Shown: one piece after another, positions 17,744 to 37,133 of the stretch
How the letters are laid out: each line of letters opens with the position of its first letter
Numbering within the stretch: the stretch's first letter is position 1
Program-made: the position numbers and the translations under genes
The notes under the pieces: generated by a model
The model's database searches: none
Told to the model about the DNA's origin: nothing
Seen by the model: the letters and a program-made list of their open reading frames with translations, nothing else
Source: an uncultured Alphaproteobacteria bacterium
Lineage (GTDB): Bacteria > Pseudomonadota > Alphaproteobacteria > HIMB59 > GCA-002718135
Assembly: GCA_902574475.1 (NCBI GenBank)
Contig: CACGNZ010000003.1
Span: 17,798-81,797 of the forward strand
DNA: 64,000 nt
Reading direction: 5' to 3'

Positions 17744-17744
17744 T

Positions 17745-20700
17745 ATGAATTATACACCTTTTATGTCAGTTTTTGATGTTGATCCACCTATTATTGATAA
17801 TAAACATTTAATTAAATGGTTAAAGATTAATTTTTCTTTCCTAAGAAATAAATTACTCAAAATTAAACAACTTGATAGTGAAAGGGATATAAATTTTATT
17901 ATATTCATAAATAATAAAAAAAAATATGTATTAAAAATTTCAAACCCATCAGAAAAAATAAATATATTAAAATACCAAGATAGATTAATTAATTATTTAC
18001 GAAGTGATCTTAGTCTTAAATCTTTTATTCCAAAAATACACCATACAAAGATTGTAAAATATTTAGATAAAAAAAATAGAGAATGCTTTGTTAGGATCTT
18101 ATCTTATATTGAAGGGCGCATGTATGGAGATACAAAAAGTAACAATAAAATTGAAAATTCTTTAGGTAAGTTACTTGGAAAAGTATCAACTAAGTTGAAA
18201 ACATTTAACGATATAGATGCCCATAGAAATTTTATTTGGGATCCATCAAATATAAAATGGATTAAAAAAGACATTAATATTTTTACTGGTTCAAAAAAAT
18301 TAATTTTATTAAAATGTTTTTCAGAATATGAAAAATTTGTAAAAAATAATTTAAATAAATTAAGATATTCAATAACTCATTCAGATCCAAATAATTATAA
18401 TATTGTTATTAAAGAAAACAATGTTTGTGGTTTACTAGATTATGGAGATTCTATTTATTCTCCAACAATAAATGATTTAGCTATATGCCTTTCATATGCA
18501 TTAATGAACAATGATAATATTTATCTTACACTTAAAAATATAATAACAGAATACAATAAACAGTTTTCTATTAATGAGGATGAAATTAATTCATTAATAT
18601 CATTATGTAAGTCAAGACTTATGATTACTGTTGTAATGGCAAAAAAACAAAGAATTAAATATCCATCAAATCAATATTTAAGCATTAGTGAGAAAGATGC
18701 ATGGTCTTTATTAGAAAAATTAGACAAAATTCCTATCAATTTTTTAATATATATTGTTCGCGAAATATGCGGCTTTGATATTATTAACCATCATAATGAA
18801 ATTATAAATTATATAAATAAATTCAACTTTGGTAATATTTTTAAATTTAATTTACTTGATAAAAATAAATCTATCTTAAAATTAAGTTCTGATTCACCTT
18901 TATTAAAAGGTAATCCAGATAATAATTCGCTTAAGAAAAGAGTTAATAAAATATTTAAAGAAGATAATTCTCGTATAGGTATAGGTTTATACAATGAAAA
19001 AAGAAAAGTTTATAAGGGACCTAACTTTATTTCTGAATTAAATACGAATGAAAGACGTAATATTCACTTAGGAATTGATATTTTTATTGATCAGGGAACA
19101 GATTTATTTGCTCCAATAGATGGTAAAATTATAATTTTAAAAAATAATAATTTTAAATATGACTATGGCCCCACTCTAGTTTTAGAACATAGTTTTAAAA
19201 AATATAAATTTTATACTCTATACGGTCATTTATCTAAAATAATGTTTCAAAAACTAAAAATTGGAAAAAAAATTAAGAAAGGTGAATGGATTGGTAAAAT
19301 TGGTAATTCTAATGAAAATGGAAAATGGTTACCACATTTACATTTTCAAATTATTTTAGATTTATTACGACATGATAAGAATTTTCCAGGAGTAGGTGAA
19401 GAATTTTTATTCAATATTTGGAATAAAATTTCACCTGATCCAAATTTAATTCTACGAATTCCAAAATCTTTTTATTCCAATAATAATAAAAATTTTAAAG
19501 ATACTTTAAAGAAAAGAAGAAAAAATATTTCTGATAATTTATCAATTTCTTACAAGAAACCTCTTCATATGCTTGAAGCTAAAGATCAGTATTTTTTTGA
19601 TAGATATGGCAGGAGATACTTAGATTGTGTAAATAATATTTCCCATGTTGGACATTCAAATTCCTATGTCCATGAAGCTATGACTCAGCAAAATTTAAAA
19701 CTTAATACTAATACTAGATATCTATACGATACAATTAACGATTATAGTGAATTACTTTTAAGTAAGTTTCCAAAGAAATTAAATAAGATATTTTTCGTAT
19801 GTACAGGATCTGAAGCTAATGATTTAGCTTATAGAATAGCCCAAACTTATACTAGTGCAAAAGATGTCTTTGTGATGGACAATGCTTATCATGGGCATAC
19901 CAATGCTTTAATTGATCTAAGTCCATATAAATTTAATAGTAAGGGTGGTTCGGGTAAAAAAGATTATGTTCATGTATTAGACATGCCTGATCCCCTAAGA
20001 GGTAAGTGGAGATATCAAAATTCAAATTGGATTCAAAAATATATAGATGAAGCTAAAACGGTAATTAGAAATAAAATTAAAGAAACCAATATTGCATGTT
20101 TTTTTACTGAATGTATACTTGGTTGTGGCGGTCAAGTAATTCTTCCAAAAAATTATTTAAAAGAAATATTTTCAGAAATTAGAAGAAACAATGCATTATG
20201 TATTGTTGACGAGGTACAAACTGGTTTTGGACGCGTTGGAAGACAATTTTGGTCATTTGAAGAGCATGATGTCGTTCCTGATATAGTAACCTTGGGCAAA
20301 CCTATGGGCAATGGTCACCCTATAGCTGCTGTTATAACTACAGAAAAAATTGCTTCAACTTTTAATAACGGGATGGAATATTTTAACTCATTCGGTGGTA
20401 ATCCTGTTTCCTGTGCTATCGGTAAAGCAGTATTAGAGACTATTGATAATAATAAATTACAAAAAAATGCTTTGTTAGTTGGTAATTATTTTTTAAAAGA
20501 ATTAAAAAAAATACAACTTAAATATAAAAAATATATTAGTGAAGTTAGAGGTAGGGGGCTTTTTTTAGGAATAGATATTATTCAGAATAGTAATGTGTCT
20601 AAACCAAATAAAAAATTAGCTAAACTGCTTATAAATTATATGAAAAATCAAGGTATTTTATTGAGCACTGATGGACCTTATGACAATGTTATTAAAATAA

Positions 20701-20777
20701 AACCACCTCTTGTATTTACAAAATTAAATGTTGATCAGGTATGTAAAAACTTAGAAACTTTCTTTAAAAAATTATAA
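17745..20777 (+). CDS. Tri-domain fusion: APH/hydroxylysine-kinase-like kinase + M23 (LytM) domain + class III PLP enzyme of the AGXT2L (phospho-lyase) type
   Basis: Kinase: HSDPNNYN (HxDxxxxN) and LLDYGDS. M23: HLGID (HxxxD) and HLHFQ (HxH). PLP domain: GSEANDLA, DEVQTGFGRVG, FWSFEEHDVVPDIVTLGKPMGNGHP. The start is ambiguous (ATG 17724, 17745 or 17763). Confidence 0.85.
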   Translation: MNYTPFMSVFDVDPPIIDNKHLIKWLKINFSFLRNKLLKIKQLDSERDINFIIFINNKKKYVLKISNPSEKINILKYQDRLINYLRSDLSLKSFIPKIHHTKIVKYLDKKNRECFVRILSYIEGRMYGDTKSNNKIENSLGKLLGKVSTKLKTFNDIDAHRNFIWDPSNIKWIKKDINIFTGSKKLILLKCFSEYEKFVKNNLNKLRYSITHSDPNNYNIVIKENNVCGLLDYGDSIYSPTINDLAICLSYALMNNDNIYLTLKNIITEYNKQFSINEDEINSLISLCKSRLMITVVMAKKQRIKYPSNQYLSISEKDAWSLLEKLDKIPINFLIYIVREICGFDIINHHNEIINYINKFNFGNIFKFNLLDKNKSILKLSSDSPLLKGNPDNNSLKKRVNKIFKEDNSRIGIGLYNEKRKVYKGPNFISELNTNERRNIHLGIDIFIDQGTDLFAPIDGKIIILKNNNFKYDYGPTLVLEHSFKKYKFYTLYGHLSKIMFQKLKIGKKIKKGEWIGKIGNSNENGKWLPHLHFQIILDLLRHDKNFPGVGEEFLFNIWNKISPDPNLILRIPKSFYSNNNKNFKDTLKKRRKNISDNLSISYKKPLHMLEAKDQYFFDRYGRRYLDCVNNISHVGHSNSYVHEAMTQQNLKLNTNTRYLYDTINDYSELLLSKFPKKLNKIFFVCTGSEANDLAYRIAQTYTSAKDVFVMDNAYHGHTNALIDLSPYKFNSKGGSGKKDYVHVLDMPDPLRGKWRYQNSNWIQKYIDEAKTVIRNKIKETNIACFFTECILGCGGQVILPKNYLKEIFSEIRRNNALCIVDEVQTGFGRVGRQFWSFEEHDVVPDIVTLGKPMGNGHPIAAVITTEKIASTFNNGMEYFNSFGGNPVSCAIGKAVLETIDNNKLQKNALLVGNYFLKELKKIQLKYKKYISEVRGRGLFLGIDIIQNSNVSKPNKKLAKLLINYMKNQGILLSTDGPYDNVIKIKPPLVFTKLNVDQVCKNLETFFKKL

Positions 20778-22570: not shown

Positions 22571-23509
22571 ATGAGCCATTTATTTTATAAACCTGCTAAA
22601 TCTAGATTACACAGAAGTGAATTGGCAGTTCCCGGCTCTAATCCAAAGATGTTTGAAAAAGCATTAAAATCAAATGCCGATTATATTTTCTTAGACCTAG
22701 AAGATGCAGTATCTCCAAATGATAAAATTGATGCAAGAAGAAATGTTATTAATGCAATAAAAGAATATAATTGGAAAGAAGAAGGTAAAACAATCTCTAT
22801 AAGAATTAACGGTTTGGATACACACTATATGTATCGTGATGTGATTGAAATTATAGAAGAGGTAGGTGATAGGGTTGATACATTATTAATTCCAAAAGTA
22901 GGCTCATCATCCGATGTGTATATGGTCGATTGTTTGCTTAATCAAATTGAGCAAAATAAAAAATTTGAAAATAGAATAGGTTTAGAATGTTTAATTGAAA
23001 CAGCACTAGGAATGTCTAATATTCAATCAATTGCAACATCAAGTTCAAGACTAGAAGCATTACACTTTGGAGTTGCAGATTATGCAGCAAGTATGCGCGC
23101 AAGAACTGTTGTTATAGGGGGGTTAAATCCTGATTACCCTGGAGATCAATGGCATCATGGCTTATCAACATTAGTAATGACTTGTAGATCATATGGCTTA
23201 AGAGCAATAGACGGACCTTTTGGTGATTTTAATGACAAAGAAGGATATCTTGATGCAGCAAAAAGAGCTGCAGCAATTGGTTTTGAGGGTAAATGGGCAA
23301 TACATCCATCACAAATAGATCTTGCTAATGAAGTTTTTTCTCCACCTAATGAAGAAATAGATAAAGCAAAAAAAATATTATTAGAATTAGAAAAAGCAGC
23401 TGCTGAAGGAAAGGGTGCTGCTCAGCTTGATGGAAGAATGATCGACGCTGCATCTGCAAGAATGGCTGAAAATATTGTAAATATAAATAAATTAATTGAG
23501 AGCAAGTAA
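22571..23509 (+). CDS. mcl: L-malyl-CoA/beta-methylmalyl-CoA lyase (HpcH/HpaI aldolase family)
   Basis: RLHRSELAVPGSNPKMFEKA, FLDLEDAV, RINGLDTHYMYRDV closely parallel Methylobacterium MclA (from memory). Confidence 0.85.
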   Translation: MSHLFYKPAKSRLHRSELAVPGSNPKMFEKALKSNADYIFLDLEDAVSPNDKIDARRNVINAIKEYNWKEEGKTISIRINGLDTHYMYRDVIEIIEEVGDRVDTLLIPKVGSSSDVYMVDCLLNQIEQNKKFENRIGLECLIETALGMSNIQSIATSSSRLEALHFGVADYAASMRARTVVIGGLNPDYPGDQWHHGLSTLVMTCRSYGLRAIDGPFGDFNDKEGYLDAAKRAAAIGFEGKWAIHPSQIDLANEVFSPPNEEIDKAKKILLELEKAAAEGKGAAQLDGRMIDAASARMAENIVNINKLIESK

Positions 23510-24669
23510 TGGATATACACGAATATCAAGCAAAAAAAATATTGTCTGATTTTGGTGTTAAAATTCCGACTGGTGGTATTGTTTATAGTCCAGAAAATGC
23601 AGAAAACAAAGCAAGAGAAATTGGTGGTTCAAAATGGGTTGTAAAAGCGCAAGTTCACTCAGGTGCTAGAGGTAAAGCGGGAGGAATTATAATATGTAAT
23701 TCTCCGTTAGAAGTTGCTGATGCAACTGATAAATTGTTAGGTAAAAAATTAATTACAAACCAAACTGGTCCAGAGGGTAAGATAATAAATAGAATTTATA
23801 TTGAAGAAGCAACTGATATCAAACACGAATTATATTTAGGTTTAGTGTTTGATAGATCTTCAGAAAGTATAATGGTTGTAGCCTCAACAGAAGGTGGAAT
23901 GAGTGTCGAAGAAATTTCAAAAGAAAAACCTGAAACAATTATACGATCTAAAATAGAAGTAGCAGTTGGTATTCAACAATTTCAAGCAAGAGAAATAGCT
24001 TTTGGTTTAGGAATTGAATCCAAATTGATCTCAAGAGCTGCAAATACAATTATTGGTTGCTATAAAGCTTTTAGTGAGCTTGATGCGACAATGGTTGAAG
24101 TTAACCCATTAGTTGTATCACACCAAGATGAAATATTAGCATTAGATTGTAAAATGAGTTTTGATAATAATGCAATGTTTAGAAGAGACGAAATTGCAGA
24201 ACTTAGAGATAAAACACAAGAAAATTCAAATGAAGTTTATGCTTCTGACAGAGGAATGAATTATGTAAGCTTAGATGGGAATATTGGTAATATTATTAAT
24301 GGTGCAGGCTTAGCAATGGCTTCAATGGATATGATCAAACTTGCTGGTGGCGAACCAGCAAATTTTTTAGATGTTGGTGGAGGCGCAACACCTGAAAAAA
24401 TAGTTAAAGCTTTTAAATTAATCTCTATGGACACAAAAGTTAAGGTTATATTAGTTAATATCTTTGCAGGGATTAACAGATGTGATTGGGTTGCAGAAGG
24501 AATTGTTCAAGCCTTATCAAAAATTGAAATTAAACATCCTTTAGTTATACGTTTAGCTGGAACTAACGTCGAAAAGGGAAATGAAATACTTAAAAAAAGC
24601 AATATAAATTACATTGAAGCATCAACATTAGAAGATGCAGCAAATAAAGCAGTGAAGGCTCTTGGATAA
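23509..24669 (+). CDS. mtkA: Malate--CoA ligase (malate thiokinase) beta/large subunit; SucC paralogue
   Basis: ATP-grasp N-terminus MDIHEYQAK. VGIQQFQAREIAF and NIFAGINRCDWVAEG resemble MtkA rather than SucC. 1-nt overlap with mcl. Confidence 0.75.
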   Translation: MDIHEYQAKKILSDFGVKIPTGGIVYSPENAENKAREIGGSKWVVKAQVHSGARGKAGGIIICNSPLEVADATDKLLGKKLITNQTGPEGKIINRIYIEEATDIKHELYLGLVFDRSSESIMVVASTEGGMSVEEISKEKPETIIRSKIEVAVGIQQFQAREIAFGLGIESKLISRAANTIIGCYKAFSELDATMVEVNPLVVSHQDEILALDCKMSFDNNAMFRRDEIAELRDKTQENSNEVYASDRGMNYVSLDGNIGNIINGAGLAMASMDMIKLAGGEPANFLDVGGGATPEKIVKAFKLISMDTKVKVILVNIFAGINRCDWVAEGIVQALSKIEIKHPLVIRLAGTNVEKGNEILKKSNINYIEASTLEDAANKAVKALG

Positions 24670-24671
24670 TC

Positions 24672-25568
24672 ATGTCTATAATCATTCACAAAAATACAAA
24701 GATTTTAGTCCAAGGATTCACAGGAAAAATTGGAAGTTTTCATGCTGAAGAAATGATTAAGTATGGTTCTAACGTTGTTGGCGGGGTAACACCTGGTAAG
24801 GGTGGTATGACTCATTTAAATCTTCCTGTTTTTAATACTGTTAAAGAAGCTGTAGATCAAACTGGAGCATCAACATCAATTTTATTTGTCCCACCAGCCT
24901 TTGCAGCAGATTCAGCAATGGAAGCTGCTGATGCAGGTATTAAAACGTGTGTGGCTATTACTGACGGTATTCCTTCTCATGATATGGTTAAAATAAAAAG
25001 ATACATGAAAAGATATCCAAAAGATAAAAAAATGGGATTAGTAGGTCCGAATTGTGCAGGAATAATTAGCCCTGGTAAATCTATGTTAGGTATTATGCCT
25101 GGCCACATTTACAAAGAAGGTAAAATAGGAATAGTTAGTAGATCTGGCACTTTGGGATATGAAGCTGCACAACAACTTAAAGATTTGGAAATTGGTGTTT
25201 CAACAAGTGTAGGTATAGGAGGCGATCCGATAAATGGAAGTTCTTTTAGAGATATAATTGAAAAGTTTGAAAATGATGATGAAACTATTGCAGTTTTAAT
25301 GATAGGTGAAATAGGTGGCCCACAAGAAGTTGAAGCTGGACAATTTGCTAAAGAAAATATGAGTAAACCTGTAATTGCGTATATAGCAGGACTAACTGCA
25401 CCTAAAGGTCGTGTGATGGGGCATGCTGGCGCAATTGTTTCTGCTTATGGTGAAAGCGCAATAGAAAAAGTAGAACTTCTTAAAGAGTGTGGAGTTACAA
25501 TTTCCAAAAACCCTTCTGTGATGGGTGAAACTGTAAAAAAAGTATTAGTAGAAAATAATTTGAATTAA
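24672..25568 (+). CDS. mtkB: Malate--CoA ligase alpha/small subunit; SucD paralogue
   Basis: CoA-binding VQGFTGKIGSFH, phosphohistidine loop MGHAGAI. Confidence 0.75.
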   Translation: MSIIIHKNTKILVQGFTGKIGSFHAEEMIKYGSNVVGGVTPGKGGMTHLNLPVFNTVKEAVDQTGASTSILFVPPAFAADSAMEAADAGIKTCVAITDGIPSHDMVKIKRYMKRYPKDKKMGLVGPNCAGIISPGKSMLGIMPGHIYKEGKIGIVSRSGTLGYEAAQQLKDLEIGVSTSVGIGGDPINGSSFRDIIEKFENDDETIAVLMIGEIGGPQEVEAGQFAKENMSKPVIAYIAGLTAPKGRVMGHAGAIVSAYGESAIEKVELLKECGVTISKNPSVMGETVKKVLVENNLN

Positions 25569-25776: not shown

Positions 25777-26340
25777 ATGAAATTATATCTTATTAGACAT
25801 GCAGAGTCAGAAGCTAATGCAGCATCAGATTTAGATAATCCAACTTATTATTATGATGCAAGAATTACTCAAAGAGGAATTGAGCAAGCAAAAAAATTAA
25901 ATAATAGAATTAAAAATCTCAAATTTGATAATTATTTTTGTTCCCCCTTAACAAGAACATTGGAAACATTCTCTATTGTTTTTCCATCTAATAAACCTGT
26001 AATTGAACCATTAATAAGAGAACATTTGTATCACTCATGTGATGTAGGAAGACAACCAAAAAAATTAAAAAAAGAATTTAATGATTTTGATTTTAATAAT
26101 TTAAATGATTTTTGGTGGAATAATAACAAACCTATAAATGAAAAAAAAATTATACAAGAGTCTCACAATGATATTAAAATGAGATTAAAATCTTTTCTAC
26201 TATCTATCAAAAAACTTAATTTACAAAAAATTGTATTAGTCAGTCATGGTACATTCTTAAGTCAAATAACTGAATATATGCTGGATAACTGTGAGGTATA
26301 TGATTGTGAGTACAACGAGGTATATGAAAAATTTTTTTAA
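25777..26340 (+). CDS. Histidine phosphatase (phosphoglycerate mutase-like) family protein
   Basis: N-terminal LIRHAESEAN (RHG-type catalytic motif) and distal SHG. Confidence 0.8.
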   Translation: MKLYLIRHAESEANAASDLDNPTYYYDARITQRGIEQAKKLNNRIKNLKFDNYFCSPLTRTLETFSIVFPSNKPVIEPLIREHLYHSCDVGRQPKKLKKEFNDFDFNNLNDFWWNNNKPINEKKIIQESHNDIKMRLKSFLLSIKKLNLQKIVLVSHGTFLSQITEYMLDNCEVYDCEYNEVYEKFF

Positions 26341-26363: not shown

Positions 26364-27131
26364 CTAAAACATCTCATTTATTATTTTATTTAATTTTTGT
26401 GTTACTCTATCAATTATTTTTTTTCCTATCTGTGCATTGGATTTTTTAGGATCTCCAATAATTCCACTTTTACTTAACTCTTTAGTTACCCAAGCTTTCT
26501 TAATATTTTTCTCATAAGAAATGGTTTTAGATGATAAATAATCGGGAGATAATCTATGTTTAGAAATTTTAGATTGCCTAACTAGGTTTGGAAATAAATA
26601 TAACATAATAGATGTTTCAAATTCTCCACCGTGATAACCAAAGTCTTTTTCTTTACTTGATATAATCCCTTTAAATTGATCAAATAAAAAATATGTGCCT
26701 TTTACTATGTTTATCTTAAATTCTGATTTCAATTCTTTAGCAATAATATCTATATGACTAATTTGTCCACCATGACTATTTAAAAGTAATATATTTTTAA
26801 ATTTCAATTTACATACATTTTCTAAAATTGATAAAGAGTGTGATATAAATTCCAATGAATCAATACTTATAGTACCATCAAAATCTGTATGTTCAGCAGC
26901 TGAACCAAAATATATTTCAGGCATAATTAAATATTTATTTGAATTATATTTTTTATTGAATTCTAATAATATTCCTTCAAGAATTTTTTTATCAGTATTT
27001 AATGGAAGGTGCGGACCATGTTGTTCTATTGATGAAAATGGGAAAATTAAAACCGTTTTTCTATTTAATTTTTTAATTTCATTAGTTGTTAATTCTTCCC
27101 AAAAGTTTGTTAGCATTTTTTTATTATACAT
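26364..27131 (-). CDS. Creatininase-family metal-dependent amidohydrolase (family also contains archaeal ArfB formamide hydrolase)
   Basis: FSSIEQHGPHLPLNTD and NSHGGQ motifs. Confidence 0.85.
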   Translation of the reverse strand: MYNKKMLTNFWEELTTNEIKKLNRKTVLIFPFSSIEQHGPHLPLNTDKKILEGILLEFNKKYNSNKYLIMPEIYFGSAAEHTDFDGTISIDSLEFISHSLSILENVCKLKFKNILLLNSHGGQISHIDIIAKELKSEFKINIVKGTYFLFDQFKGIISSKEKDFGYHGGEFETSIMLYLFPNLVRQSKISKHRLSPDYLSSKTISYEKNIKKAWVTKELSKSGIIGDPKKSNAQIGKKIIDRVTQKLNKIINEMF

Positions 27132-27144
27132 TTATAAGTAAATT

Positions 27145-28104
27145 ATGAAATCTTATTCTTTATGGATTGATAAAAAAAAACAAGCTAAAATTTATCAAAA
27201 AAAACTTGTTTACAATAAAAATAACAAAACTGTTTTAGTTAAAACTATATACTCAGGTATTAGTAAGGGAACTGAAAAAATAGTTTCATCTAAAAGCGTA
27301 AGTCAGGATCAATTTGAATTAATGAAAGCCCCTTTTCAAGAGGGTTCTTTTAATTTACCTATAAAATATGGTTATATAAATGTTGGAAATATTATCGATG
27401 GTCCAAAAAAATATATAAATAAAAAAATATTTAGTCTTTATCCTCATCAAGATTTATATGAAATTTCTATTAAAAATTTAATTTTTCTACCAAATGAAAA
27501 TTTGCGAAAATATATTCTAACTGCAAATATGGAAACAGCAATTAATATCTTTTGGGACGCCCAATCTAAAAGTAATAACAAAATTCTAATTGTAGGTCTT
27601 GGCACTGTAGGATTATTAACTGCATTTTTTTTTAAAATTAATGGATATAAAAATGTTTATGTTTTTGATAATAATAAAAATAAAAGAAAAATTGCCAATT
27701 ATTTAGGATTAAATTTTATTGATATAAGAAAGATTGAGAAAATAGATGTAGCAATAAACACTACCGCTAATTATAAAGTTTTAAATTCTTTAATGGAAAA
27801 ATTATCTATCGAAGGAAAAATAGTAGAAGCTAGTTGGTATGGTAAAAATAAAGGAGAAGTTGCCTTAGGTGGGTATTTTCATTCTAAAAGATTAAAAATT
27901 ATTAGCTCACAGGTATCTAAAATCCCAAAATACATGAAAAATAAATATGATTTTGAGGGGAGATTAAAATTAGCAATTAAATCTTTAAAAAATTCAAAAT
28001 TAGAAAAATTAATTACTAGTGAAAGTAATTTTTTTGATTTAGAAAAAGATTACTATAAAATCCTTCAAAATAAGGATACTATAATGCATCTAGTTAAATA
28101 TTAA
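27145..28104 (+). CDS. MDR-superfamily dehydrogenase/reductase lacking the catalytic-zinc Cys/His motif
   Basis: GroES-like N-domain with SGISKGTE in place of GICG(S/T)D. Rossmann motif VGLGTVGLL. Confidence 0.7.
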   Translation: MKSYSLWIDKKKQAKIYQKKLVYNKNNKTVLVKTIYSGISKGTEKIVSSKSVSQDQFELMKAPFQEGSFNLPIKYGYINVGNIIDGPKKYINKKIFSLYPHQDLYEISIKNLIFLPNENLRKYILTANMETAINIFWDAQSKSNNKILIVGLGTVGLLTAFFFKINGYKNVYVFDNNKNKRKIANYLGLNFIDIRKIEKIDVAINTTANYKVLNSLMEKLSIEGKIVEASWYGKNKGEVALGGYFHSKRLKIISSQVSKIPKYMKNKYDFEGRLKLAIKSLKNSKLEKLITSESNFFDLEKDYYKILQNKDTIMHLVKY

Positions 28105-28106
28105 TT

Positions 28107-28505
28107 ATGTATTCGATAAAAGTAAGAGAAAATATTCTAATAGCCCATTCTTTACCTGGAGAAGTATTTGGACCAGCCCAAAATATGCATGGAGCTACAT
28201 ATTTAGTAGATGCTGAATTTTTCACTGATAAACTTAATAAATACAATATAATTATGGATTTAGGAATAGTGTCCACGACTTTAAAAGATATTCTTAAAAT
28301 ATATAATTATCAAAATTTAGACGAAATTGATGAATTTAAGGGAAAAATTACCTCAACAGAGTTTTTAGCACAGGATATTTGCAATAAGATCTTGAATAGA
28401 CTAAGAAATGAATTCTCTGAAGATTACAAATCTTTAAAAAAAATTAAAATAACCTTGCAAGAATCAAATGTTGCATGGGCATCATATGAAAAAGAGGTTA
28501 TCTAA
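28107..28505 (+). CDS. T-fold protein of the 6-pyruvoyl-tetrahydropterin synthase/QueD family, atypical active site
   Basis: ILIAHSL, MHGATY (HGA instead of HGH) and ITSTEFLAQ (TxE-type C-terminal motif). No Cys in the usual catalytic position. Confidence 0.7.
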   Translation: MYSIKVRENILIAHSLPGEVFGPAQNMHGATYLVDAEFFTDKLNKYNIIMDLGIVSTTLKDILKIYNYQNLDEIDEFKGKITSTEFLAQDICNKILNRLRNEFSEDYKSLKKIKITLQESNVAWASYEKEVI

Positions 28506-29532
28506 AAATAAATCTGATATTTATTTTGTTTATCCAGGAAATATTAATGCAAAAACTGGAGGATATATTTATGAAAAAAATATCCTAGAATATGCAAAGA
28601 TAAGATCTATAAATATTAGAACAATTGCTCTAAGTGAAAATTATCCTTTTCCTACAAATAACGATATAAAATATTTTCTAAAAATTTTAGATAAAATTGA
28701 TCCAGACTCTAAAATTATCATAGATGGATTAGCTTTAGAAGGAATGTATTCAATTTTTAAAAAATTACTAACTTATAATGTCATCGCGCTAATACATCAT
28801 CCTTTATATCTTGAATTTAAAAGTCATAGGTCAAAAAAATTCTTACGATTAGAAAAAGAAAATTTCAAAAAAATAAATAAATTTATTGTGACTTCTAAAA
28901 ATACAAAAAATTTATTAATAAATGAATTTAAGGTACTAAATAATAAAATTTCTGTAGTTGAACCTGGTATAGAAAGACTTGCAAAATATAATTTTAAAAA
29001 TAATAGTAAAATTCATCTTTTAACATGTGGAAGTGTAATAAATAGAAAAAATTATCTTTTTTTATTAAAAGTTTTAAAGCCTTTAGATAATTTTATTTTA
29101 GAAATTGTTGGTGATACTACAAGAGATATAAGTTATTACAAAAAAATCAAAAAATTTATTTCTAAAAATTCAATGAACAGAAAAATAATATTCCATGGTA
29201 CTATTTCAGATACAAAATTAGCTAAATTATATTCTAAAACAGATTGTTACATTTCGGTAAGTAAATATGAAGGTTTTGGTATGTCTTTAGCAAATGCATT
29301 AATAATTAAAAAGCCAATTATAACCTTTTTTACTGATACTATTTTAAATACACTAGGAAAAAAGGGTGTTATTTATTTCAAAAAATTTGAAGTAAATGAT
29401 CTAAGAAATATAATTATTAAAAATATATTAAATAAAAAAAATTTTAAAAAACTAAATATTGATATCCATAAAAATAAAAGATATCTTCTTACTCCTCTTG
29501 AGTCAGCTAAGAAATTTGTTAAATTAATTTAA
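28486..29532 (+). CDS. Glycosyltransferase, GT-B fold (GT1/GT4-like)
   Basis: C-terminal SVSKYEGFGMSLANALIIKKPII (E-x7-E-type sugar-donor region). ATG 28486 is preferred over the track start 28468. Confidence 0.75.
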   Translation: MKKRLSKNKSDIYFVYPGNINAKTGGYIYEKNILEYAKIRSINIRTIALSENYPFPTNNDIKYFLKILDKIDPDSKIIIDGLALEGMYSIFKKLLTYNVIALIHHPLYLEFKSHRSKKFLRLEKENFKKINKFIVTSKNTKNLLINEFKVLNNKISVVEPGIERLAKYNFKNNSKIHLLTCGSVINRKNYLFLLKVLKPLDNFILEIVGDTTRDISYYKKIKKFISKNSMNRKIIFHGTISDTKLAKLYSKTDCYISVSKYEGFGMSLANALIIKKPIITFFTDTILNTLGKKGVIYFKKFEVNDLRNIIIKNILNKKNFKKLNIDIHKNKRYLLTPLESAKKFVKLI

Positions 29533-29533
29533 T

Positions 29534-30322
29534 ATGCATGAATTTCAAAATAAATGGTTAAATCTTAGAGAAACTGTCGATAGAAATTCAAGAAACAAAA
29601 GAATACTATATTTAATTAATAAATTTTTTAAAAATAAAAAAAATATTAGAATTGTTGACTTAGGTTCAGGTGCTGGATCTAATTACAGATTTTTAAAGTC
29701 ACGAATATTAAATAATCAATATTGGTATTTTGTAGACATATCACATCAATCAACAAATTATTTTAAAAAAAATATAAAATTATCATCTAAAATAAAAAAA
29801 ACTAATTTTAAAATTGTTGATGTAATTAATAATCTAGAAAAAATAAATTTTAATGATTATAATTTAGTTACAGGATCTGCTTTTTTAGATATTCTTCCAA
29901 AAACATGGTTTAAAAATTTTCATAAATTAAATGTTGATACAGAAATTGTCTACTTTGCCTTAAATTATAACGGTAATTTTAAATTTTCTCCAAAACATAA
30001 GGATGATAAAAAAATTCTTAATATTTTTAATAAAGATCAAAAATCTGACAAAGGAATAGGGGAAGTGGCCGTTGGACCAGATTGTACTGAATTAATAAAT
30101 AAAGTATTTAAAAGAACTCACAAAACATATGTTTTAGATTCTACGTGGGATGTTTGTAAGAATTATGAATTTCAAATTTATTTCTTAAATTTTTGTAGAG
30201 AAATTATTCAAAAAAATAAACTTAACTTTGATGATTGGTTAAAATTTCGTTTAAAATGTATTAAAGAAAAAAATTCTAGATTTATTTTAAATAATACAGA
30301 TTTTTTAGCTATTAAGAAATAA
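29534..30322 (+). CDS. Class I SAM-dependent methyltransferase
   Basis: Motif I IVDLGSGAGSN; 262 aa. Confidence 0.75.
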   Translation: MHEFQNKWLNLRETVDRNSRNKRILYLINKFFKNKKNIRIVDLGSGAGSNYRFLKSRILNNQYWYFVDISHQSTNYFKKNIKLSSKIKKTNFKIVDVINNLEKINFNDYNLVTGSAFLDILPKTWFKNFHKLNVDTEIVYFALNYNGNFKFSPKHKDDKKILNIFNKDQKSDKGIGEVAVGPDCTELINKVFKRTHKTYVLDSTWDVCKNYEFQIYFLNFCREIIQKNKLNFDDWLKFRLKCIKEKNSRFILNNTDFLAIKK

Positions 30323-31138
30323 ATTAACAATAATTTCATTATCTAATTCATTAAAATTATGTTTTGGTCTGATAGCTTTATTGAGATTTGAAATTTCTTT
30401 TAAATTTAATGAATTAATTCCTGAACCTATTAATATTGGGGCAATCATAAATTGAAGAATATCAATATATTTATTATTTATTAATTCTGAAATAGTTTTT
30501 GATCCTCCCTCTACTAAAATATTTTTATATTTAAGTTTTTTTATTTGCTTAATTAAGTTTTTAGTAAAATTTTTTTCTTTTAATCTAATTATTGTTGAAT
30601 TATTCAATCTAATATTTTTATTACTTTTTGTAAAAATTATATTTTCATTACTGTCATTAAATATTTTATATTTGTTATTTAGAGAAAGACTACCATCGAT
30701 AATAATTCTTTTTGGATTTGTGCCCTTTATTTTTCTTGTTGTTAATAGTGGATCGTCTTTTTTAATGGTATTTGAGCCTACAATAATTGCATCACTGATA
30801 CTTCGTAAACAATGTAGATAAATTATACTCTTGGGATTATTTATGAAATGTGAATTACCATTATTTAATGCAATTCTACCATCAATACTTTGTCCTATCT
30901 GAGCTATAACTAATTTTTTGTTTTTTCTTAATATCGGGAGAAGGATATTTAAGATTGATTGATAATATTTACTTATATTAATTTTAAATTCCAGATTATT
31001 ATTTTTTATGTAAAAATTACTTTTTCTTTTTGATGATAAAGAAATACTATTTTTTTTAACCAATAAATATAAATCACTATTCTTTTTAGAATTTTTTATA
31101 AAATCTAGTAATATTCCTATATTTTTTGATGTAATCAT
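30305..31138 (-). CDS. RibD C-terminal-domain (pyrimidine reductase) family protein without a deaminase domain
   Basis: VIAQIGQSIDGRIAL, DAIIVGSNTIKKDDPLLTTR, ILVEGGSKT. The N-terminal ~70 aa lack HAE/PCxxC deaminase motifs. Confidence 0.8.
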   Translation of the reverse strand: MITSKNIGILLDFIKNSKKNSDLYLLVKKNSISLSSKRKSNFYIKNNNLEFKINISKYYQSILNILLPILRKNKKLVIAQIGQSIDGRIALNNGNSHFINNPKSIIYLHCLRSISDAIIVGSNTIKKDDPLLTTRKIKGTNPKRIIIDGSLSLNNKYKIFNDSNENIIFTKSNKNIRLNNSTIIRLKEKNFTKNLIKQIKKLKYKNILVEGGSKTISELINNKYIDILQFMIAPILIGSGINSLNLKEISNLNKAIRPKHNFNELDNEIIVNLFLNS

Positions 31139-31174
31139 TTGTTTTTATTACAATTATATCTATATAAAGTTTTC

Positions 31175-32296
31175 ATGAGTTTCAAATCTAATACAGGAAC
31201 TATAATAGACAGGGCAATTAACGAACTCAGGACCGGAAGACCCTTAATAATTAAGAATAACAAGGAATATTGGATGTTCTTTAATATAGAGCATTCCCAA
31301 AGTAAAATTTTTAATCAATTCAATAAGCACTTAGTTGATGAAAAATACTTACTTATTACTAAACAAAAAGCTCAATCAATTTTTAATAAGAATATTAAAA
31401 GTAATATTTATTTTGAAATAAATCCCAAAACAGATGTAAATCAAATAATAAATTTATTTGTCAATCCTCTTAGCAACAATAAAGTAATTAAATTTACCAA
31501 TATTAAAAAATTCAAAGCTAAAAATTTTCATAATGTTTGTATTGATCTTTCCAAAAATGCTAAAATGATACCATCTCTAGTTTTTAAAAAAATTAATAAA
31601 AAAAATTACAAAAATATAAATGAATTTGGATTTAAAAATGGAATTTTAATATTTGATTACAAAGATTTATTGAAGCAAAATGAATTAATTTGTGAAAGTA
31701 TCAAATTAGTTTCTAGTGCAAAAGTTCCACTACCAAAAAATGAAAATTCTAATTTTAAAATATTCAAATCATATATTGGATCTGATAAACATGTAGCGAT
31801 AATTGTTAATCCAAAAAAAATAAATAAAAAATCTGTTAATTTAAGAATACATTCAGCTTGTTTTACAGGTGATATTTTTCATTCTTTAAAATGTGATTGC
31901 GGTGAACAGTTAAATCAATCAATCAATTACATGGTTAGAAATAATGGTGGAATTATATTATATTTAGAACAAGAAGGTAGAGGAATAGGATTAGCTAATA
32001 AAATGAGAGCCTATTCTCTTCAAGCAAGGGGTATGGATACAATAGACGCCGATCATAATATTGGTTTTTTAGATGATGAAAGAGATTTTAATATTGCAGC
32101 TAGAATACTTAAATTATTAAAAATAAATAAAGTTAATCTTATTACAAATAATAAAAATAAAATAAATTCTATTAAGAAAGCAGGAATTAAAGTTGAAAAT
32201 CAAATAAATACAAAGCCAACCTTAAATAAATTTAATAAAAATTATTTTAAAACAAGAGTAAAAAAAGCCGGGTATGGTCTTAAACTAGTAGTATAA
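31175..32296 (+). CDS. GTP cyclohydrolase II with a ~185-aa N-terminal extension (degenerate RibB-like)
   Basis: RIHSACFTGD…SLKCDCG (Zn Cys triad), EQEGRGIGLANKMRAYSLQ, DERDF. The N-terminus RAINELRTGRPLII resembles DHBP synthase but lacks the acidic DDEDRENEGD loop. ATG 31175 is preferred over TTG 31139. Confidence 0.85.
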   Translation: MSFKSNTGTIIDRAINELRTGRPLIIKNNKEYWMFFNIEHSQSKIFNQFNKHLVDEKYLLITKQKAQSIFNKNIKSNIYFEINPKTDVNQIINLFVNPLSNNKVIKFTNIKKFKAKNFHNVCIDLSKNAKMIPSLVFKKINKKNYKNINEFGFKNGILIFDYKDLLKQNELICESIKLVSSAKVPLPKNENSNFKIFKSYIGSDKHVAIIVNPKKINKKSVNLRIHSACFTGDIFHSLKCDCGEQLNQSINYMVRNNGGIILYLEQEGRGIGLANKMRAYSLQARGMDTIDADHNIGFLDDERDFNIAARILKLLKINKVNLITNNKNKINSIKKAGIKVENQINTKPTLNKFNKNYFKTRVKKAGYGLKLVV

Positions 32297-32298
32297 TT

Positions 32299-32742
32299 AT
32301 GAAAAAAATTCCTAAAATAAAACTACAATTAACAAACGACAATGAGTTTGATTCATCTAAATTGAAGAATAAAACAGTTTTATTCTTTTACCCTAAGGCG
32401 TTAACTGGTGGATGCTCAGTAGAAGTTGCAGATTTTCAGAAATATTTAACAAAATTTAATAAAATTGGCTTTCATGTAATAGGAGCTTCTAAAGATCCTG
32501 TTGATCGGAATAAAAAATTTTCAGATAAGTATAAATTGAAATACCCACTTGGTTCGGATGAAGGAAAAAATTGTGATAAACTTGGTATTTGGATAGAAAA
32601 ATCTATGTATGGTAGGAAATATTTTGGGATAGATAGATCTACATTTGTAATCGATAAAAATGGAAAAATTCTAAATTCTTGGAATAAAGTTAAAGTTAAA
32701 GGTCATGTTGAAGAAGTTTATAATTTTTGTAAGGATCAGTAA
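32299..32742 (+). CDS. bcp: Peroxiredoxin, Bcp/AhpC-TSA family
   Basis: FYPKALTGGCSVE (PxxxTxxC peroxidatic motif). Lies 2 nt after the GCH II gene. Confidence 0.8.
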   Translation: MKKIPKIKLQLTNDNEFDSSKLKNKTVLFFYPKALTGGCSVEVADFQKYLTKFNKIGFHVIGASKDPVDRNKKFSDKYKLKYPLGSDEGKNCDKLGIWIEKSMYGRKYFGIDRSTFVIDKNGKILNSWNKVKVKGHVEEVYNFCKDQ

Positions 32743-32746
32743 ATTC

Positions 32747-33640
32747 TTATTTAATTTTACCTATTTCTTTTTCTCTTTTGATTACAAATAAACCACTTAA
32801 TGTAATAATTATTGCACCAATAATCATATTATAAGTTGGAGTTTCACCTAGTATTAAATACCCAAAAATCATACCAAATATAATTACACTGTATCTTGCA
32901 GAGGCGGTTAATGAGAGTGGTGCATAAAAAACTGTTAATACTGAAAATAAATATCCAAATAAAACAAATATACTAGAAGCAAGAATATAATTTACATCTT
33001 CACTGCTTACTTGATAACCAAAAATAATTGAACCCAACCCTGCAAACCCAGTAATTAATAATGCTGTCACAAATGTAATTTCAACACTATTTGATTTAGT
33101 TGCTAAACTTTTTGTAGCAATGTCTCTAATAGTTAAAAAAATAGCAGCTAAAATTGGTAACACTAAAAGATAATTAAATTGAAAATTTTGTGGATTTACA
33201 ACTACTAATACACCTAAAAACCCAATGATAACTGCACACCATCTTCTTATACCAACTTTCTCTCCCAAAAAAAGAAAAGCAAATATTGTGACAAAGAAAG
33301 GATTAGTCATTAAAAGTGTATAAACCTCAGATATTGGCAATAATATTAATCCAACCAAAAAAAATAATGCCGTTAAAACTTCATACAAACCTCTTATATG
33401 AAAACTTTTGATTGATAGTATTTTAATTAAATTCTTTTTTTCGAAAAAGATTAAATATAAACCTAATAGACTTGATGTAACTAAACCTCTTAAAAAAATT
33501 ACAGAATATAATGAATTGTCATCACCTATATTTTTTACAACAAGTTTGACATAACTATCATTTATAGAGAATGATAATTGGCCAGCCATCATAAAAAGTA
33601 CACCTATCGTCCCAACTGAAAATAAGATCTTGCTTTTCAT
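32747..33640 (-). CDS. DMT-superfamily (EamA-type) transporter
   Basis: 297 aa, ~10 TM, two EamA-like halves. Confidence 0.8.
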   Translation of the reverse strand: MKSKILFSVGTIGVLFMMAGQLSFSINDSYVKLVVKNIGDDNSLYSVIFLRGLVTSSLLGLYLIFFEKKNLIKILSIKSFHIRGLYEVLTALFFLVGLILLPISEVYTLLMTNPFFVTIFAFLFLGEKVGIRRWCAVIIGFLGVLVVVNPQNFQFNYLLVLPILAAIFLTIRDIATKSLATKSNSVEITFVTALLITGFAGLGSIIFGYQVSSEDVNYILASSIFVLFGYLFSVLTVFYAPLSLTASARYSVIIFGMIFGYLILGETPTYNMIIGAIIITLSGLFVIKREKEIGKIK

Positions 33641-35348: not shown

Positions 35349-36224
35349 ATGTTTAATAAGCAAATAATATACTGCTCATCAGGAATAATTTTTGGCGGTT
35401 TATTTTTTGTAATTCATGATGCAATTATTAATCATTTATCTTATCTAAATTTTAAATTTTATCATCATATTGTTTTTGGAAGTCCATGGATGTTTTTATT
35501 ATTTATATATTTACTTTTATCAGGAAATTTTAAAAAACATCTTTCTTCATCAAATTACACAATCTTAATTATCAGAGGTGCTATTTTCTTACCTATACCG
35601 TTTATATTATTTGTTAGCTTACAAAATATTTCTTTAGCGGAATGGACAACTTTACATATGATCTCACCTATTTTGGGAATGATATTGGCTATAATTTTTT
35701 TAAAAGAAAAAATTAATTTATTTACAGTAATTTCAATAATTTTAGGCTTTACAGGGGTTTTATTTATACTTCAGCCAGGATTTAATAATTTTAATATTTA
35801 TTATTTAGGTCCATTATTTGGAGCTTTTACTTTAGCGTTACAAAGTTTTCTAGCAAATAAATTTAATAACATATGTTCTACTTTAGGTTTTTTTATATAT
35901 GGATTATTACCTGTTAACGTGTTGTCTTTCATTTTATTTTACAATGATCCATTAATTGATTTTGAATTAGTCAAATTATCATTATTTGCAAATTTTATTG
36001 TTTTAATTGGAATGTATCTTTTTACTTACGCTCTTCAAAATTCACAAAAACATTTTTCATCAGTTTTTGGCTTATTATATTTACAAATATTTTGGTCTTT
36101 TATTATTAGTGCATCTTTTTTTAATGAAAATATAAATATAATTGTAATTTCAGGAGCAATTTTTATTATAATTAGCGGCTTACTCTCTCTTCATGCACAA
36201 AAGAAACAATTAAATGATTATTAA
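35349..36224 (+). CDS. DMT-superfamily transporter, tandem paralogue 1
   Basis: 10-TM profile. Aligns end to end with the next ORF (e.g. LFILQPGFNNFNIYYL vs LFVIQPGFESFNIYYL). Confidence 0.7.
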   Translation: MFNKQIIYCSSGIIFGGLFFVIHDAIINHLSYLNFKFYHHIVFGSPWMFLLFIYLLLSGNFKKHLSSSNYTILIIRGAIFLPIPFILFVSLQNISLAEWTTLHMISPILGMILAIIFLKEKINLFTVISIILGFTGVLFILQPGFNNFNIYYLGPLFGAFTLALQSFLANKFNNICSTLGFFIYGLLPVNVLSFILFYNDPLIDFELVKLSLFANFIVLIGMYLFTYALQNSQKHFSSVFGLLYLQIFWSFIISASFFNENINIIVISGAIFIIISGLLSLHAQKKQLNDY

Positions 36225-36254: not shown

Positions 36255-37133
36255 ATGAAAAAAAGCATTATTTACTCATCTATACTTTTATTTTTTGCAG
36301 GAATATTTTTTGTAACCAATGATGCAATTATAAATTATCTATCTCAAACAGATGTAAAATTCTACCATTTCATTTTCTATGGAATACCTATTTATTTATG
36401 TTTTCCTTTTTATTTATTTATAAATGGATCTTTAAAAAAAAATATAAAATGCACTAATTATTTTCCACCTATTTTCAGAGGTTTTTTAAACATCCCTTTG
36501 CCATTTATTGCTTTTATAACTCTTGAACAAATTAAACTTCCAGAATTCACAACATTAAATATGACTGCACCATTGATGGGAACAATATTTGCTATTTTTT
36601 TACTAAATGAAAAATTAAATCTTTTAACATATATATCCTTGTTCATTGGTTTTTTAGGTGTGCTATTTGTTATACAGCCGGGATTTGAAAGTTTTAATAT
36701 TTATTACCTAATTGTACTGATAGGTGTATTCTTAATTACAGTTACAACATTTATTGTAAATAAATATAACCATGTAACTACAAATATTGGATATTTTCTT
36801 TATGGTGGTTTCTTTGTTCACTTTTTTTCAATACCTTTATTTTTAATAAATCCATTAAAAGTAAACTTTGTTGAATTTTTTTTAATATCAACTGCTGCAT
36901 TATTTATTAATTCAGCAATGTTCTTTGCAACAACTGCATTTAAGATTGCACAAAAACATTATGCGTCAGTATTTAGTTTAGTCTACCTCCAGGTGTTATG
37001 GTCATCATTAGTTGGAATATTTATATTTAATGAATATATGAATTTATATGCTTATATTGGAGCTATATTTATTGTTTTAAGTGGAATTGTTTCATTACCT
37101 TCACAAATAAAACAATTAAAGGAAGCAAATTAA
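36255..37133 (+). CDS. DMT-superfamily transporter, tandem paralogue 2
   Basis: See the previous feature. Same length class (292 vs 291 aa) and colinear conserved blocks. Confidence 0.7.
   Translation: MKKSIIYSSILLFFAGIFFVTNDAIINYLSQTDVKFYHFIFYGIPIYLCFPFYLFINGSLKKNIKCTNYFPPIFRGFLNIPLPFIAFITLEQIKLPEFTTLNMTAPLMGTIFAIFLLNEKLNLLTYISLFIGFLGVLFVIQPGFESFNIYYLIVLIGVFLITVTTFIVNKYNHVTTNIGYFLYGGFFVHFFSIPLFLINPLKVNFVEFFLISTAALFINSAMFFATTAFKIAQKHYASVFSLVYLQVLWSSLVGIFIFNEYMNLYAYIGAIFIVLSGIVSLPSQIKQLKEAN

Follow-up and report, generated by a model that had tools for sequence, protein, structure and literature searches.

What do the seven enzyme genes make that lie side by side at 26364-32296 of a 64,000-nt stretch of contig CACGNZ010000003.1, from an uncultured alphaproteobacterium? 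The stretch as a whole, hereafter the window, had been read from its letters alone, and this original prediction proposed a candidate cluster for an uncharacterised GTP-derived glycoside of the 2-aminopyrimidine or pteridine type. Comparison with other genomes confirms that the seven genes are a copy of a conserved cluster found from Proteobacteria to Actinomycetota and, in an altered form, in haloarchaea. On balance, the encoded protein families favour seeing this segment as the soluble half, building the head group, of a widespread orphan pathway that involves PTPS-IV, a subfamily of T-fold proteins, and as the same cluster as the Streptomyces locus of SCO6650, which presumably contains SCO6655 as well. 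The seven genes and their immediate neighbours are:

25777-26340 (+): histidine phosphatase, CobC-like (His_Phos_1, 7e-23)
26364-27131 (-): creatininase-family metallo-amidohydrolase (Pfam Creatininase, 2e-55)
27145-28104 (+): zinc-less, NAD-type dehydrogenase of the MDR superfamily, BchC- or polyol-dehydrogenase-like (weak ADH_zinc_N and BchC matches)
28107-28505 (+): T-fold protein of the PTPS-IV subfamily (Pfam PTPS, 1e-20)
28468 or 28486 (likely start) to 29532 (+): GT4 glycosyltransferase, GT-B and retaining (Glycos_transf_1, 9e-18)
29534-30322 (+): class I S-adenosylmethionine (SAM)-dependent methyltransferase (weak Methyltransf_31 and Methyltransf_25 matches)
30305-31138 (-): RibD_C-only pyrimidine reductase paralogue (RibD_C, 3e-31, residues 77-243)
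31139 (TTG) or 31175 (ATG, likely start) to 32296 (+): long-form GTP cyclohydrolase II (GCH II; GTP_cyclohydro2, 2e-48, residues 193-356 of 385)
32299-32742 (+): Bcp/PrxQ peroxiredoxin, 2 nt 3' of the GCH II gene (AhpC-TSA, 2e-26)

The open reading frames (ORFs) listed between 25777 and 32742 are the genes named in the original prediction, and the domains that it gave are borne out by Pfam (Creatininase, PTPS, Glycos_transf_1, RibD_C, GTP_cyclohydro2, AhpC-TSA and His_Phos_1), the MDR and methyltransferase matches being weak and under the gathering cut-offs. The spacers of 13, 2, -20, 1, -18, 36 and 2 nt are reproduced when the glycosyltransferase starts at Met7 (28486) and GCH II at Met13 (31175). 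The latter start agrees with the 373-aa GCH II call in L087, a marine contig of a close relative (79% identical); the glycosyltransferase call of that contig (357 aa, 10362-11435) uses the upstream start and overlaps the PTPS gene by 38 nt instead of 20. No cluster protein lies above any NCBIfam equivalog cut-off, and GCH II alone passes a model cut-off, that of the general RibA subfamily model; the histidine phosphatase stays under every NCBIfam cut-off and Bcp, with 107.4 bits, misses the 140-bit cut-off of NF006960. All seven cluster proteins are predicted to be soluble. The window is AT-rich (GC about 21-33%), and its 64 kb hold 61 ORFs of 100 aa or more. Because it is tightly packed throughout, small spacers alone are no evidence of a cluster, and the finding was therefore tested by conservation in other genomes.

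One genome per species was scanned with a PTPS-like alignment of 13 sequences (A2), which matched at least 600 stretches, and at least 596 PTPS-IV loci were confirmed among the species-representative genomes. The 80 best-matching loci to one query were kept, from Gamma-, Beta- and Alphaproteobacteria, Acidobacteriota, Gemmatimonadota and Actinomycetota, and all ORFs of the resulting comparative set of 87 loci were clustered de novo. The order MDR, PTPS-IV, GT4, methyltransferase is nearly invariant in this set: with PTPS (80/87 loci) as the position reference, MDR lies at -0.8 kb (79/87), GT4 at +0.7 kb (83/87) and the methyltransferase at +1.7 kb (64/87), all on the same strand, so that the glycosylation and methylation genes, as predicted, belong to the core. 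RibD_C (47/87), GCH II (38/87) and creatininase (34/87) recur within 10 kb, GCH II and creatininase being both present within this distance in 30 of the 38 GCH II-bearing loci. Further families are a CDP-alcohol phosphotransferase (65/87, divergent, at -1.7 kb), a "sulfatase" of about 580 aa that is LtaS-like (32/87) and an LPG_synthase_TM flippase-like protein (30/87). All seven families of the window are found together in 16 other loci, from Gemmatimonadota, Gammaproteobacteria, Acidobacteriota and Actinomycetota. Chance co-occurrence, estimated for single- or few-copy genes, is less than about 1% per family in a 20-kb segment, and the observed values are far above it. The neighbourhood comparison thus upholds a dedicated, co-conserved cluster, its order and composition being kept in unrelated genomes, and extends well beyond Alphaproteobacteria the similar gene sets that the original prediction had mentioned for that class. 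Two neighbours fall away: Bcp, listed there with the cluster enzymes, and the abutting histidine phosphatase are not cluster members, because outside the window they adjoin it in L087 alone and are absent from the 86 loci beyond this SAR11-like lineage.

The same gene order is found on plasmids of Agrobacterium, Methylosinus, Streptomyces, Thiodictyon and Microbacterium. On pAt of Agrobacterium tumefaciens, a long, divergent ribA is followed by genes for an alcohol dehydrogenase (ADH), a "6-carboxytetrahydropterin synthase", a GT4 and a methyltransferase, then by a convergent RibD-family gene and cytochrome b, with a CDP-alcohol phosphatidyltransferase, a flippase-like protein and a "sulfatase" upstream. 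Plasmid pOB3b1 of Methylosinus OB3b and a Rhodobacteraceae plasmid carry the core genes and RibD_C; all cluster genes are on one strand in Thiodictyon. The arrangement is CDP-alcohol phosphotransferase / ADH-PTPS-GT4-methyltransferase ... creatininase / ribA in Streptomyces fungicidicus, and CDP-alcohol phosphotransferase-ADH-PTPS-GT4-methyltransferase-LPG_synthase_TM / RibD on the mobilizable Microbacterium plasmid pSGAir0570_2 (L092, 59 kb). Plasmid-borne copies, many of them on megaplasmids, occur in Alphaproteobacteria, Gammaproteobacteria, Actinomycetota and haloarchaea, and this carriage in several groups points to horizontal spread. When the MDR protein was compared with plasmids by tblastn, 30 full-length matches of 22-40% identity were obtained; megablast of the cluster region against plasmids gave no match, and a first homologue search returned near-identical marine sequences only, which are uninformative on function. 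Independent support for functional coupling comes from fusion proteins, namely PTPS-IV with methyltransferase and MDR (1032 aa), MDR-PTPS and PTPS-GT4, some of which could be gene-calling artefacts. Single chains of 373-855 aa with three PTPS-IV-like domains in tandem can also be found (P0123, P0124, P0144, P0148, P0149, P0159, P0265, P0170 and P0248 are among these proteins, which include fusions).

Regarding the T-fold protein, the window sequence reads EVFGPAQNMHGAT and carries an FGPAQ signature upstream of its HG motif, and F21, G22, P23, A24 and Q25 are invariant in alignment A2. By this signature and its closest structure it is a PTPS-IV protein and an orthologue of Streptomyces coelicolor SCO6650: its sole PDB match is 3D7J, entitled "Uncharacterized protein SCO6650" (E 7e-34, about 50% identical). 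Compared with Escherichia coli QueD, His16, His31, Glu86 and Glu110 are kept and Cys27 and His33 are lost; in place of the canonical CxxxHGH, CxxxxxHGH or ExxHGH motif the window reads FGPAQNMHGAT, without the third His and the Cys or Glu, and it scores under the QueD and 6PTHBS cut-offs of NCBIfam. This loss of the zinc site with retention of Glu86, the residue that binds the 2-amino-4-oxopyrimidine in QueD and PTPS, agrees with the properties of SCO6650, which is reported to have neither zinc nor PTPS activity, to retain a pterin-type pocket and to be metal-free in the crystal structure. Both GTP_cyclohydro2 (PF00925) and RibD_C (PF01872) lie within 3.5 kb of the PTPS-IV gene in the window. 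In print, FGPAQ has been given as the mark of PTPS-IV within COG0720 (PMC5445326), and the same two Pfam families were reported in the PTPS-IV neighbourhood by a neighbourhood-network paper of 2017. The description as an atypical PTPS/QueD-fold protein was right as to the fold and missed that the subfamily already had a name and a published GCH II/RibD_C neighbourhood.

The entry into the pathway is indicated by GCH II, creatininase and RibD_C. The window GCH II reaches 218 bits with NF001591 (cut-off 148) and keeps the zinc ligands Cys54, Cys65 and Cys67 together with Tyr105 and Arg128 (E. coli numbering, on a verified reference sequence). Its N-terminal domain has no Pfam match and none to DHBP_synthase even at E 10, and it aligns remotely to residues 11-83 of E. 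coli RibB (hhalign, 85% probability, E 6e-6); as the acidic catalytic loop (DDEDRENEGD) is deleted, the protein lacks the make-up of an active bifunctional RibBA and looks like a RibBA descendant that has kept only the cyclohydrolase. At position 105, the long forms of Proteobacteria, Gemmatimonadota and Acidobacteriota almost always have Tyr, with Ile in one Halomonas copy, and the actinomycete cluster copies have Met where they come from Streptomyces and mostly His otherwise; the Met- or His-type actinobacterial enzyme stands beside a creatininase in 19 of 20 loci, the exception being on a short contig. The Met form of the cluster is presumably SCO6655, and the window enzyme, having Tyr, differs from such FAPy-forming, non-Tyr105 enzymes. 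SCO6655 was reportedly found by Spoonamore et al., in 2006 and 2008, to stop at the formylated product FAPy, and this work is said to be the basis of the SCO6648-6655 gene-number assignment. According to a 2026 review, the third RibA copy of S. coelicolor has a new function unrelated to flavin.

The creatininase-family protein has the metal ligands E36, H38, D47, H120 and E172, conserved across 34 cluster-linked homologues. The family includes the AFRPP formamidases ArfB and BrbF, the latter proven in 2022 to be a creatininase-family FAPy (AFRPP) formamidase in Sinorhizobium meliloti and Brucella, where it is essential for riboflavin. The window protein scores 29.9 bits with the ArfB model (cut-off 180), and the plasmid homologues, all about 30-33% identical, do not discriminate as regards orthology to BrbF. 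As a probable formamidase, it would deformylate what GTP ring-opening yields in formylated form (FAPy/AFRPP) or act on a later formyl or amide intermediate. RibD_C has a 76-aa N-terminal extension in which Pfam finds nothing, and no deaminase domain. It falls short of the bacterial RibD models (115.8 against 156 for TIGR00326, 119.6 against 150 for TIGR00227) and of the archaeal reductase model; its nearest PDB entries are RibD reductase domains and the archaeal and fungal DARoPP reductases (1e-17 to 1e-13), with dihydrofolate reductase at only 4e-4. The predicted absence of a deaminase thus holds, and together with the Glu kept in the T-fold protein it favours retention of the 2-amino group.

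In haloarchaea, two of the three loci inspected have no GCH II and place the non-homologous GTP cyclohydrolase IIa (ArfA) directly upstream of MDR; one of these ArfA-bearing loci also has a CDP-alcohol phosphotransferase, PTPS, methyltransferase and GT4, and the third locus is without ArfA. The coordinates of these haloarchaeal features are L005 8154-8936 and L090 6177-6938, and L005 9977-10351 and L091 5367-5774. The haloarchaeal PTPS homologues lack FGPAQ, keep the HxH pair and may, to judge from these residues, still bind zinc. Since two non-homologous GTP ring-openers occupy the same slot, which is strong comparative evidence, the pathway would start from ring-opened GTP, the precursor that the original prediction had considered likely.

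The remaining core enzymes point to a sugar- or polyol-like side chain. The MDR protein, encoded directly upstream of PTPS-IV, belongs to the predicted superfamily, with conserved GxGxxG (151-156) and Asp175, the Asp being typical of NAD preference; what the prediction had not noticed is that the zinc ligands are lost, Cys being replaced by Ser in GVS(R/K)GTE (also given as GIS(K)GTE) and the His-Glu of GHE by YGY. Single-sequence PDB searches with MDR, GT4 and the methyltransferase gave little or nothing, so that family profiles were needed for MDR and GT4. The nearest structures to the MDR profile are iditol, galactitol-1-phosphate, xylitol and sorbitol dehydrogenases, and those to the GT4 profile are Tll1590 (4e-41), the inositol-phosphate glycosyltransferase MshA (2e-31) and PimB'/PimA, with no specific similarity to a pteridine glycosyltransferase among the PDB matches. 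Tll1590 is a sucrose-phosphate synthase. These matches indicate that the closest characterised GT4 relatives use a phosphorylated sugar or polyol, or else a polyol lipid, as substrate.

From these parts, the following route can be proposed. The RibBA-derived GCH II, by the known function of its family, would open the imidazole ring of GTP and lead into the 2,5-diamino-6-ribosylaminopyrimidinone 5'-phosphate series; the creatininase-family enzyme would deformylate a formylated intermediate, like ArfB and BrbF; and the RibD_C reductase, by homology and for lack of a deaminase, would reduce the ribosylamino to the ribitylamino group with the 2-amino group kept. More speculatively, the zinc-less, NAD-type MDR might oxidise a secondary hydroxyl of the ribityl-phosphate chain, and PTPS-IV might bind the 2-amino-4-oxopyrimidine by its conserved Glu and promote ring closure or tautomerisation. 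Oxidation at C2' could then give the keto-amine of GTP cyclohydrolase I and hence a pterin resembling dihydroneopterin phosphate, which is the kind of substrate used by every other PTPS subfamily. The GT4, resembling MshA and sucrose-phosphate synthase, would finally glycosylate the polyol-phosphate side chain, and the SAM methyltransferase would methylate the product. The predicted GTP-derived pteridine or aminopyrimidine glycoside thus stands as regards a dedicated GTP pathway, the retained 2-amino group, the sugar and the methyl group; closure to a pteridine is the part that does not stand as a finding.

Several points weigh against this account. No product has been observed for any cluster member, and ring closure and the roles given to MDR and PTPS-IV are chemical inference. 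With Tyr105 kept, the window GCH II should deformylate alone, which leaves the creatininase without an obvious substrate, and GCH II, creatininase and RibD_C may double in the riboflavin synthesis of the window organism. RibD_C is missing near most Streptomyces copies, and the 80 genome loci include many from Streptomyces and Variovorax, so that their counts are not phylogenetically independent. A published remark, moreover, links PTPS-IV to F420 (Zallot et al., 2016). As for the statement that no product had been assigned, a literature search found no paper that assigns one.

What most other genomes add is a membrane module of three proteins: a CDP-alcohol phosphotransferase, a flippase-like protein of the MprF type and a membrane protein that resembles LtaS or EptA. 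A gene for the first lies no more than 10 kb away in 58 of 66 full-length loci; the protein has 5-8 hydrophobic segments, and its DxxDGxxAR...G...D...D motif is intact. The third is annotated by PGAP as a "sulfatase" (L001 4181-5767 (-), homologues in 32 loci) and has about five N-terminal hydrophobic segments and a weak Sulfatase match (E 0.007), an LtaS/EptA/OpgB-like architecture that suggests transfer of a head group from a lipid to an envelope acceptor. The 64 kb of the window hold no homologue of the CDP-alcohol phosphotransferase, of LPG_synthase_TM or of the LtaS-like protein, even at E 10. The window cluster is therefore a reduced variant. In other genomes, this gene content suggests a product that is usually lipid-linked, flipped outward and perhaps passed to an envelope acceptor, linkage to a phospholipid and movement to the outer membrane face being probable, and it speaks against taking the end product in general for a simple, soluble pterin glycoside; window-type organisms may have a product that remains soluble, or may carry the membrane module in another part of the genome. 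Proteins of the YceI type, in some cases apparently joined with a membrane domain, and cytochrome b561 are encoded next to the cluster in Burkholderiales, Agrobacterium, Thiodictyon and Gemmatimonadota (e.g., L010 852-1688, L011 7538-8839 and L001 12987-13520), a recurrence that hints at a redox partner.

As to the nature of the product, our tentative proposal, possible rather than probable, is an undescribed GTP-derived, glycosylated and methylated 2-amino-pteridine or ribitylaminopyrimidine that in most lineages would be attached to phospholipid by the dedicated CDP-alcohol phosphotransferase, flipped and perhaps handed over by the LtaS-like enzyme to a polymer of the envelope, and that in the window type would be soluble. 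A rather unlikely rival to the favoured reading keeps the cluster and the GTP origin and has the pyrazine ring never closed: a ribitylaminopyrimidine 5'-phosphate, or a re-closed ribityl-purine, would be used as a polyol phosphate, as inositol phosphate serves for phosphatidylinositol, its mannosides and mycothiol, and be glycosylated, methylated, joined to lipid and flipped, the end product being an envelope glycophospholipid or decoration, possibly on an envelope polymer via the LtaS-like protein, instead of a pterin glycoside. The intact CDP-alcohol phosphotransferase in those 58 of 66 loci speaks for it, as do the flippase-like protein in 30 loci, the weak-sulfatase protein with its five or so membrane segments in 32, GT4 relatives that act on polyol or sugar phosphates or phosphatidylinositol, the cytochrome b561 and YceI neighbours in several phyla, and mdoH, which adjoins the cluster in Methylosinus. 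To our knowledge, no such ribityl-type glycophospholipid is known; the three membrane genes are missing from the 64 kb of the window, and an unmodified head group would hardly account for the presence of a T-fold protein and a dehydrogenase.

GCH II, a BrbF-type creatininase and RibD_C might be the early riboflavin genes of a streamlined organism, standing by chance beside an unrelated operon of MDR, PTPS, glycosyltransferase and methyltransferase. The requirement for BrbF in riboflavin synthesis of S. meliloti and Brucella, both alphaproteobacteria, is in keeping with this, and so are a window GCH II that has every canonical catalytic residue and passes the RibA subfamily cut-off (218 against 148 bits), a RibD_C nearest to riboflavin reductases and the tight packing of genes throughout the window. 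We nevertheless hold it to be improbable, as the same three families stand beside PTPS-IV in dozens of unrelated large, free-living genomes, RibD_C and the long GCH II fall under the equivalog cut-offs, and the Streptomyces cluster copies carry Tyr105Met. The window, moreover, has no deaminase, ribH, ribE, active ribB or flavin mononucleotide (FMN) riboswitch; Rfam returned two tRNAs only, and no riboswitch in seven other cluster loci.

The biosynthesis of coenzyme F420 (or F0) is a far weaker candidate and very improbable. Actinomycetes and haloarchaea do make F420, and this coenzyme is built from a GTP-derived ribitylaminopyrimidine. We know of no F420 production in window-type bacteria, Variovorax, Halomonas or Agrobacterium. 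Among the further families shared by at least six of the 87 loci there is no candidate for cofC, cofD, cofE, cofG or cofH, no deaminase is present for a uracil-type precursor, and the haloarchaeal PTPS homologues are without FGPAQ. The involvement of PTPS-IV in F420 synthesis, stated by Zallot et al. (2016) with reference to unpublished work, is the sole function offered in print for this subfamily. Mere juxtaposition in a compact genome, to which the uniformly high coding density of the window might seem to lend itself, is hardly credible, being contradicted by an order and composition conserved across bacterial phyla, archaea and plasmids and by the fusions. An assignment of the creatininase, MDR, PTPS and glycosyltransferase genes to "orf19-22" of the methanopterin island was also considered and dropped: the Methylosinus PTPS-IV cluster lies on pOB3b1 without afpA, no tetrahydromethanopterin (H4MPT) genes were seen in the annotated neighbourhoods inspected, and no further family is common to many of the 87 loci. 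An orf19-orf22 island with afpA is listed among the H4MPT gene islands of the Methylosinus genome.

The orphan PTPS-IV pathway, as favoured here, can be set against the closest known systems. The Streptomyces SCO6650 locus shares the order CDP-alcohol phosphotransferase / MDR-PTPS-IV-GT4-methyltransferase-flippase / creatininase / GCH II; unlike it, the window has RibD_C and a long GCH II with Tyr105 in place of the short Met form, and lacks the CDP-alcohol phosphotransferase and flippase genes. The early riboflavin pathway (RibA/RibBA and RibD; ArfA-ArfB-ArfC; BrbF) has in common with the cluster the ring-opening of GTP, an optional FAPy deformylation by a creatininase-family enzyme and the reduction of ribosyl to ribityl by a RibD_C fold, whereas the cluster is without deaminase, lumazine synthase, riboflavin synthase and FMN riboswitch, has a degenerate RibB-like domain, and ties these genes to MDR, PTPS-IV, GT4 and the methyltransferase. 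Toxoflavin clusters (toxABCDE) also combine GCH II, a RibD-like enzyme and a SAM methyltransferase, and lack the T-fold protein, MDR, GT4 and creatininase; as the nine proteins of the cluster and its flanks show no Pfam domain besides those given above, nothing of the ToxC/ToxD type is apparent among them, no search having been aimed at ToxC/ToxD homologues. The pterin glycoside pathways of cyanobacteria and Chlorobium (GTP cyclohydrolase I, PTPS, sepiapterin reductase and pteridine glycosyltransferase) likewise bring a T-fold protein, a side-chain oxidoreductase and a GT-B enzyme to a 2-amino-4-oxo heterocycle, but the cluster is entered by GCH II or ArfA, not by GTP cyclohydrolase I, its PTPS homologue has neither the zinc site nor the catalytic Cys, and most copies have a lipid module. 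Finally, the early steps of phosphatidylinositol, phosphatidylinositol mannoside (PIM) and mycothiol synthesis (PIP synthase or PgsA, PimA/PimB' and MshA) offer an analogy for the full cluster, as a polyol phosphate is there glycosylated by GT4 enzymes and joined with CDP-diacylglycerol; in the cluster the polyol would be a GTP-derived ribityl chain and not inositol, no orthology is claimed, and the window is without the transferase.

The cluster had already been noticed in print, as the PTPS-IV neighbourhood of 2017, its product never having been solved; it is thus recognised but unsolved. The account of prior knowledge in the original prediction was accordingly incomplete, since it missed the PTPS-IV literature, SCO6650/SCO6655, the BrbF formamidase and the membrane module. 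With at least 596 loci in Proteobacteria, Actinomycetota, Acidobacteriota and Gemmatimonadota and a divergent version on haloarchaeal plasmids, this orphan pathway extends to what looks like a streamlined, SAR11-type marine bacterium, in which every retained gene presumably matters, and studies in S. coelicolor on the biochemistry and structure of two of its proteins, made years ago, led to no pathway. The parts list as a whole, including the haloarchaeal cyclohydrolase swap, the formamidase link and the membrane module, gives a concrete and testable route. A solution would add a GTP-derived cofactor branch beside folate, riboflavin, queuosine, molybdopterin and methanopterin, and might reveal a new lipid head group. 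If the lipid-attached product tentatively proposed above is right, it would belong to a new class of glycophospholipid or envelope decoration, redox-active and pterin-like, and would account for the retention by Streptomyces of a FAPy-forming RibA paralogue (SCO6655) and a metal-free PTPS homologue (SCO6650).

Some observations concern the surroundings of the cluster. Directly 5' of it, at 22571-25568 (+), a malyl-CoA-lyase-like HpcH/HpaI lyase is followed by two succinyl-CoA-synthetase-like subunits resembling malate thiokinase, an arrangement also kept in L087. Further upstream, at 17724-20777 (+), lies a 1017-aa ORF whose L087 homologue is an unusual fusion, a single chain with Pfam matches to APH (kinase), Peptidase_M23 and class-III aminotransferase. 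On the right of the cluster, three membrane transporters of the EamA/DMT family are encoded at 32747-33640 (-), 35349-36224 (+) and 36255-37133 (+), two of which have L087 homologues with EamA Pfam matches, the third being judged by sequence. The EamA/DMT family includes the RibN riboflavin importers; in other genomes these transporters are not conserved beside the cluster. Between the histidine phosphatase and creatininase genes, L087 has an extra ORF of 156 aa (7788-8258) that is without a Pfam match and has no counterpart in the window.

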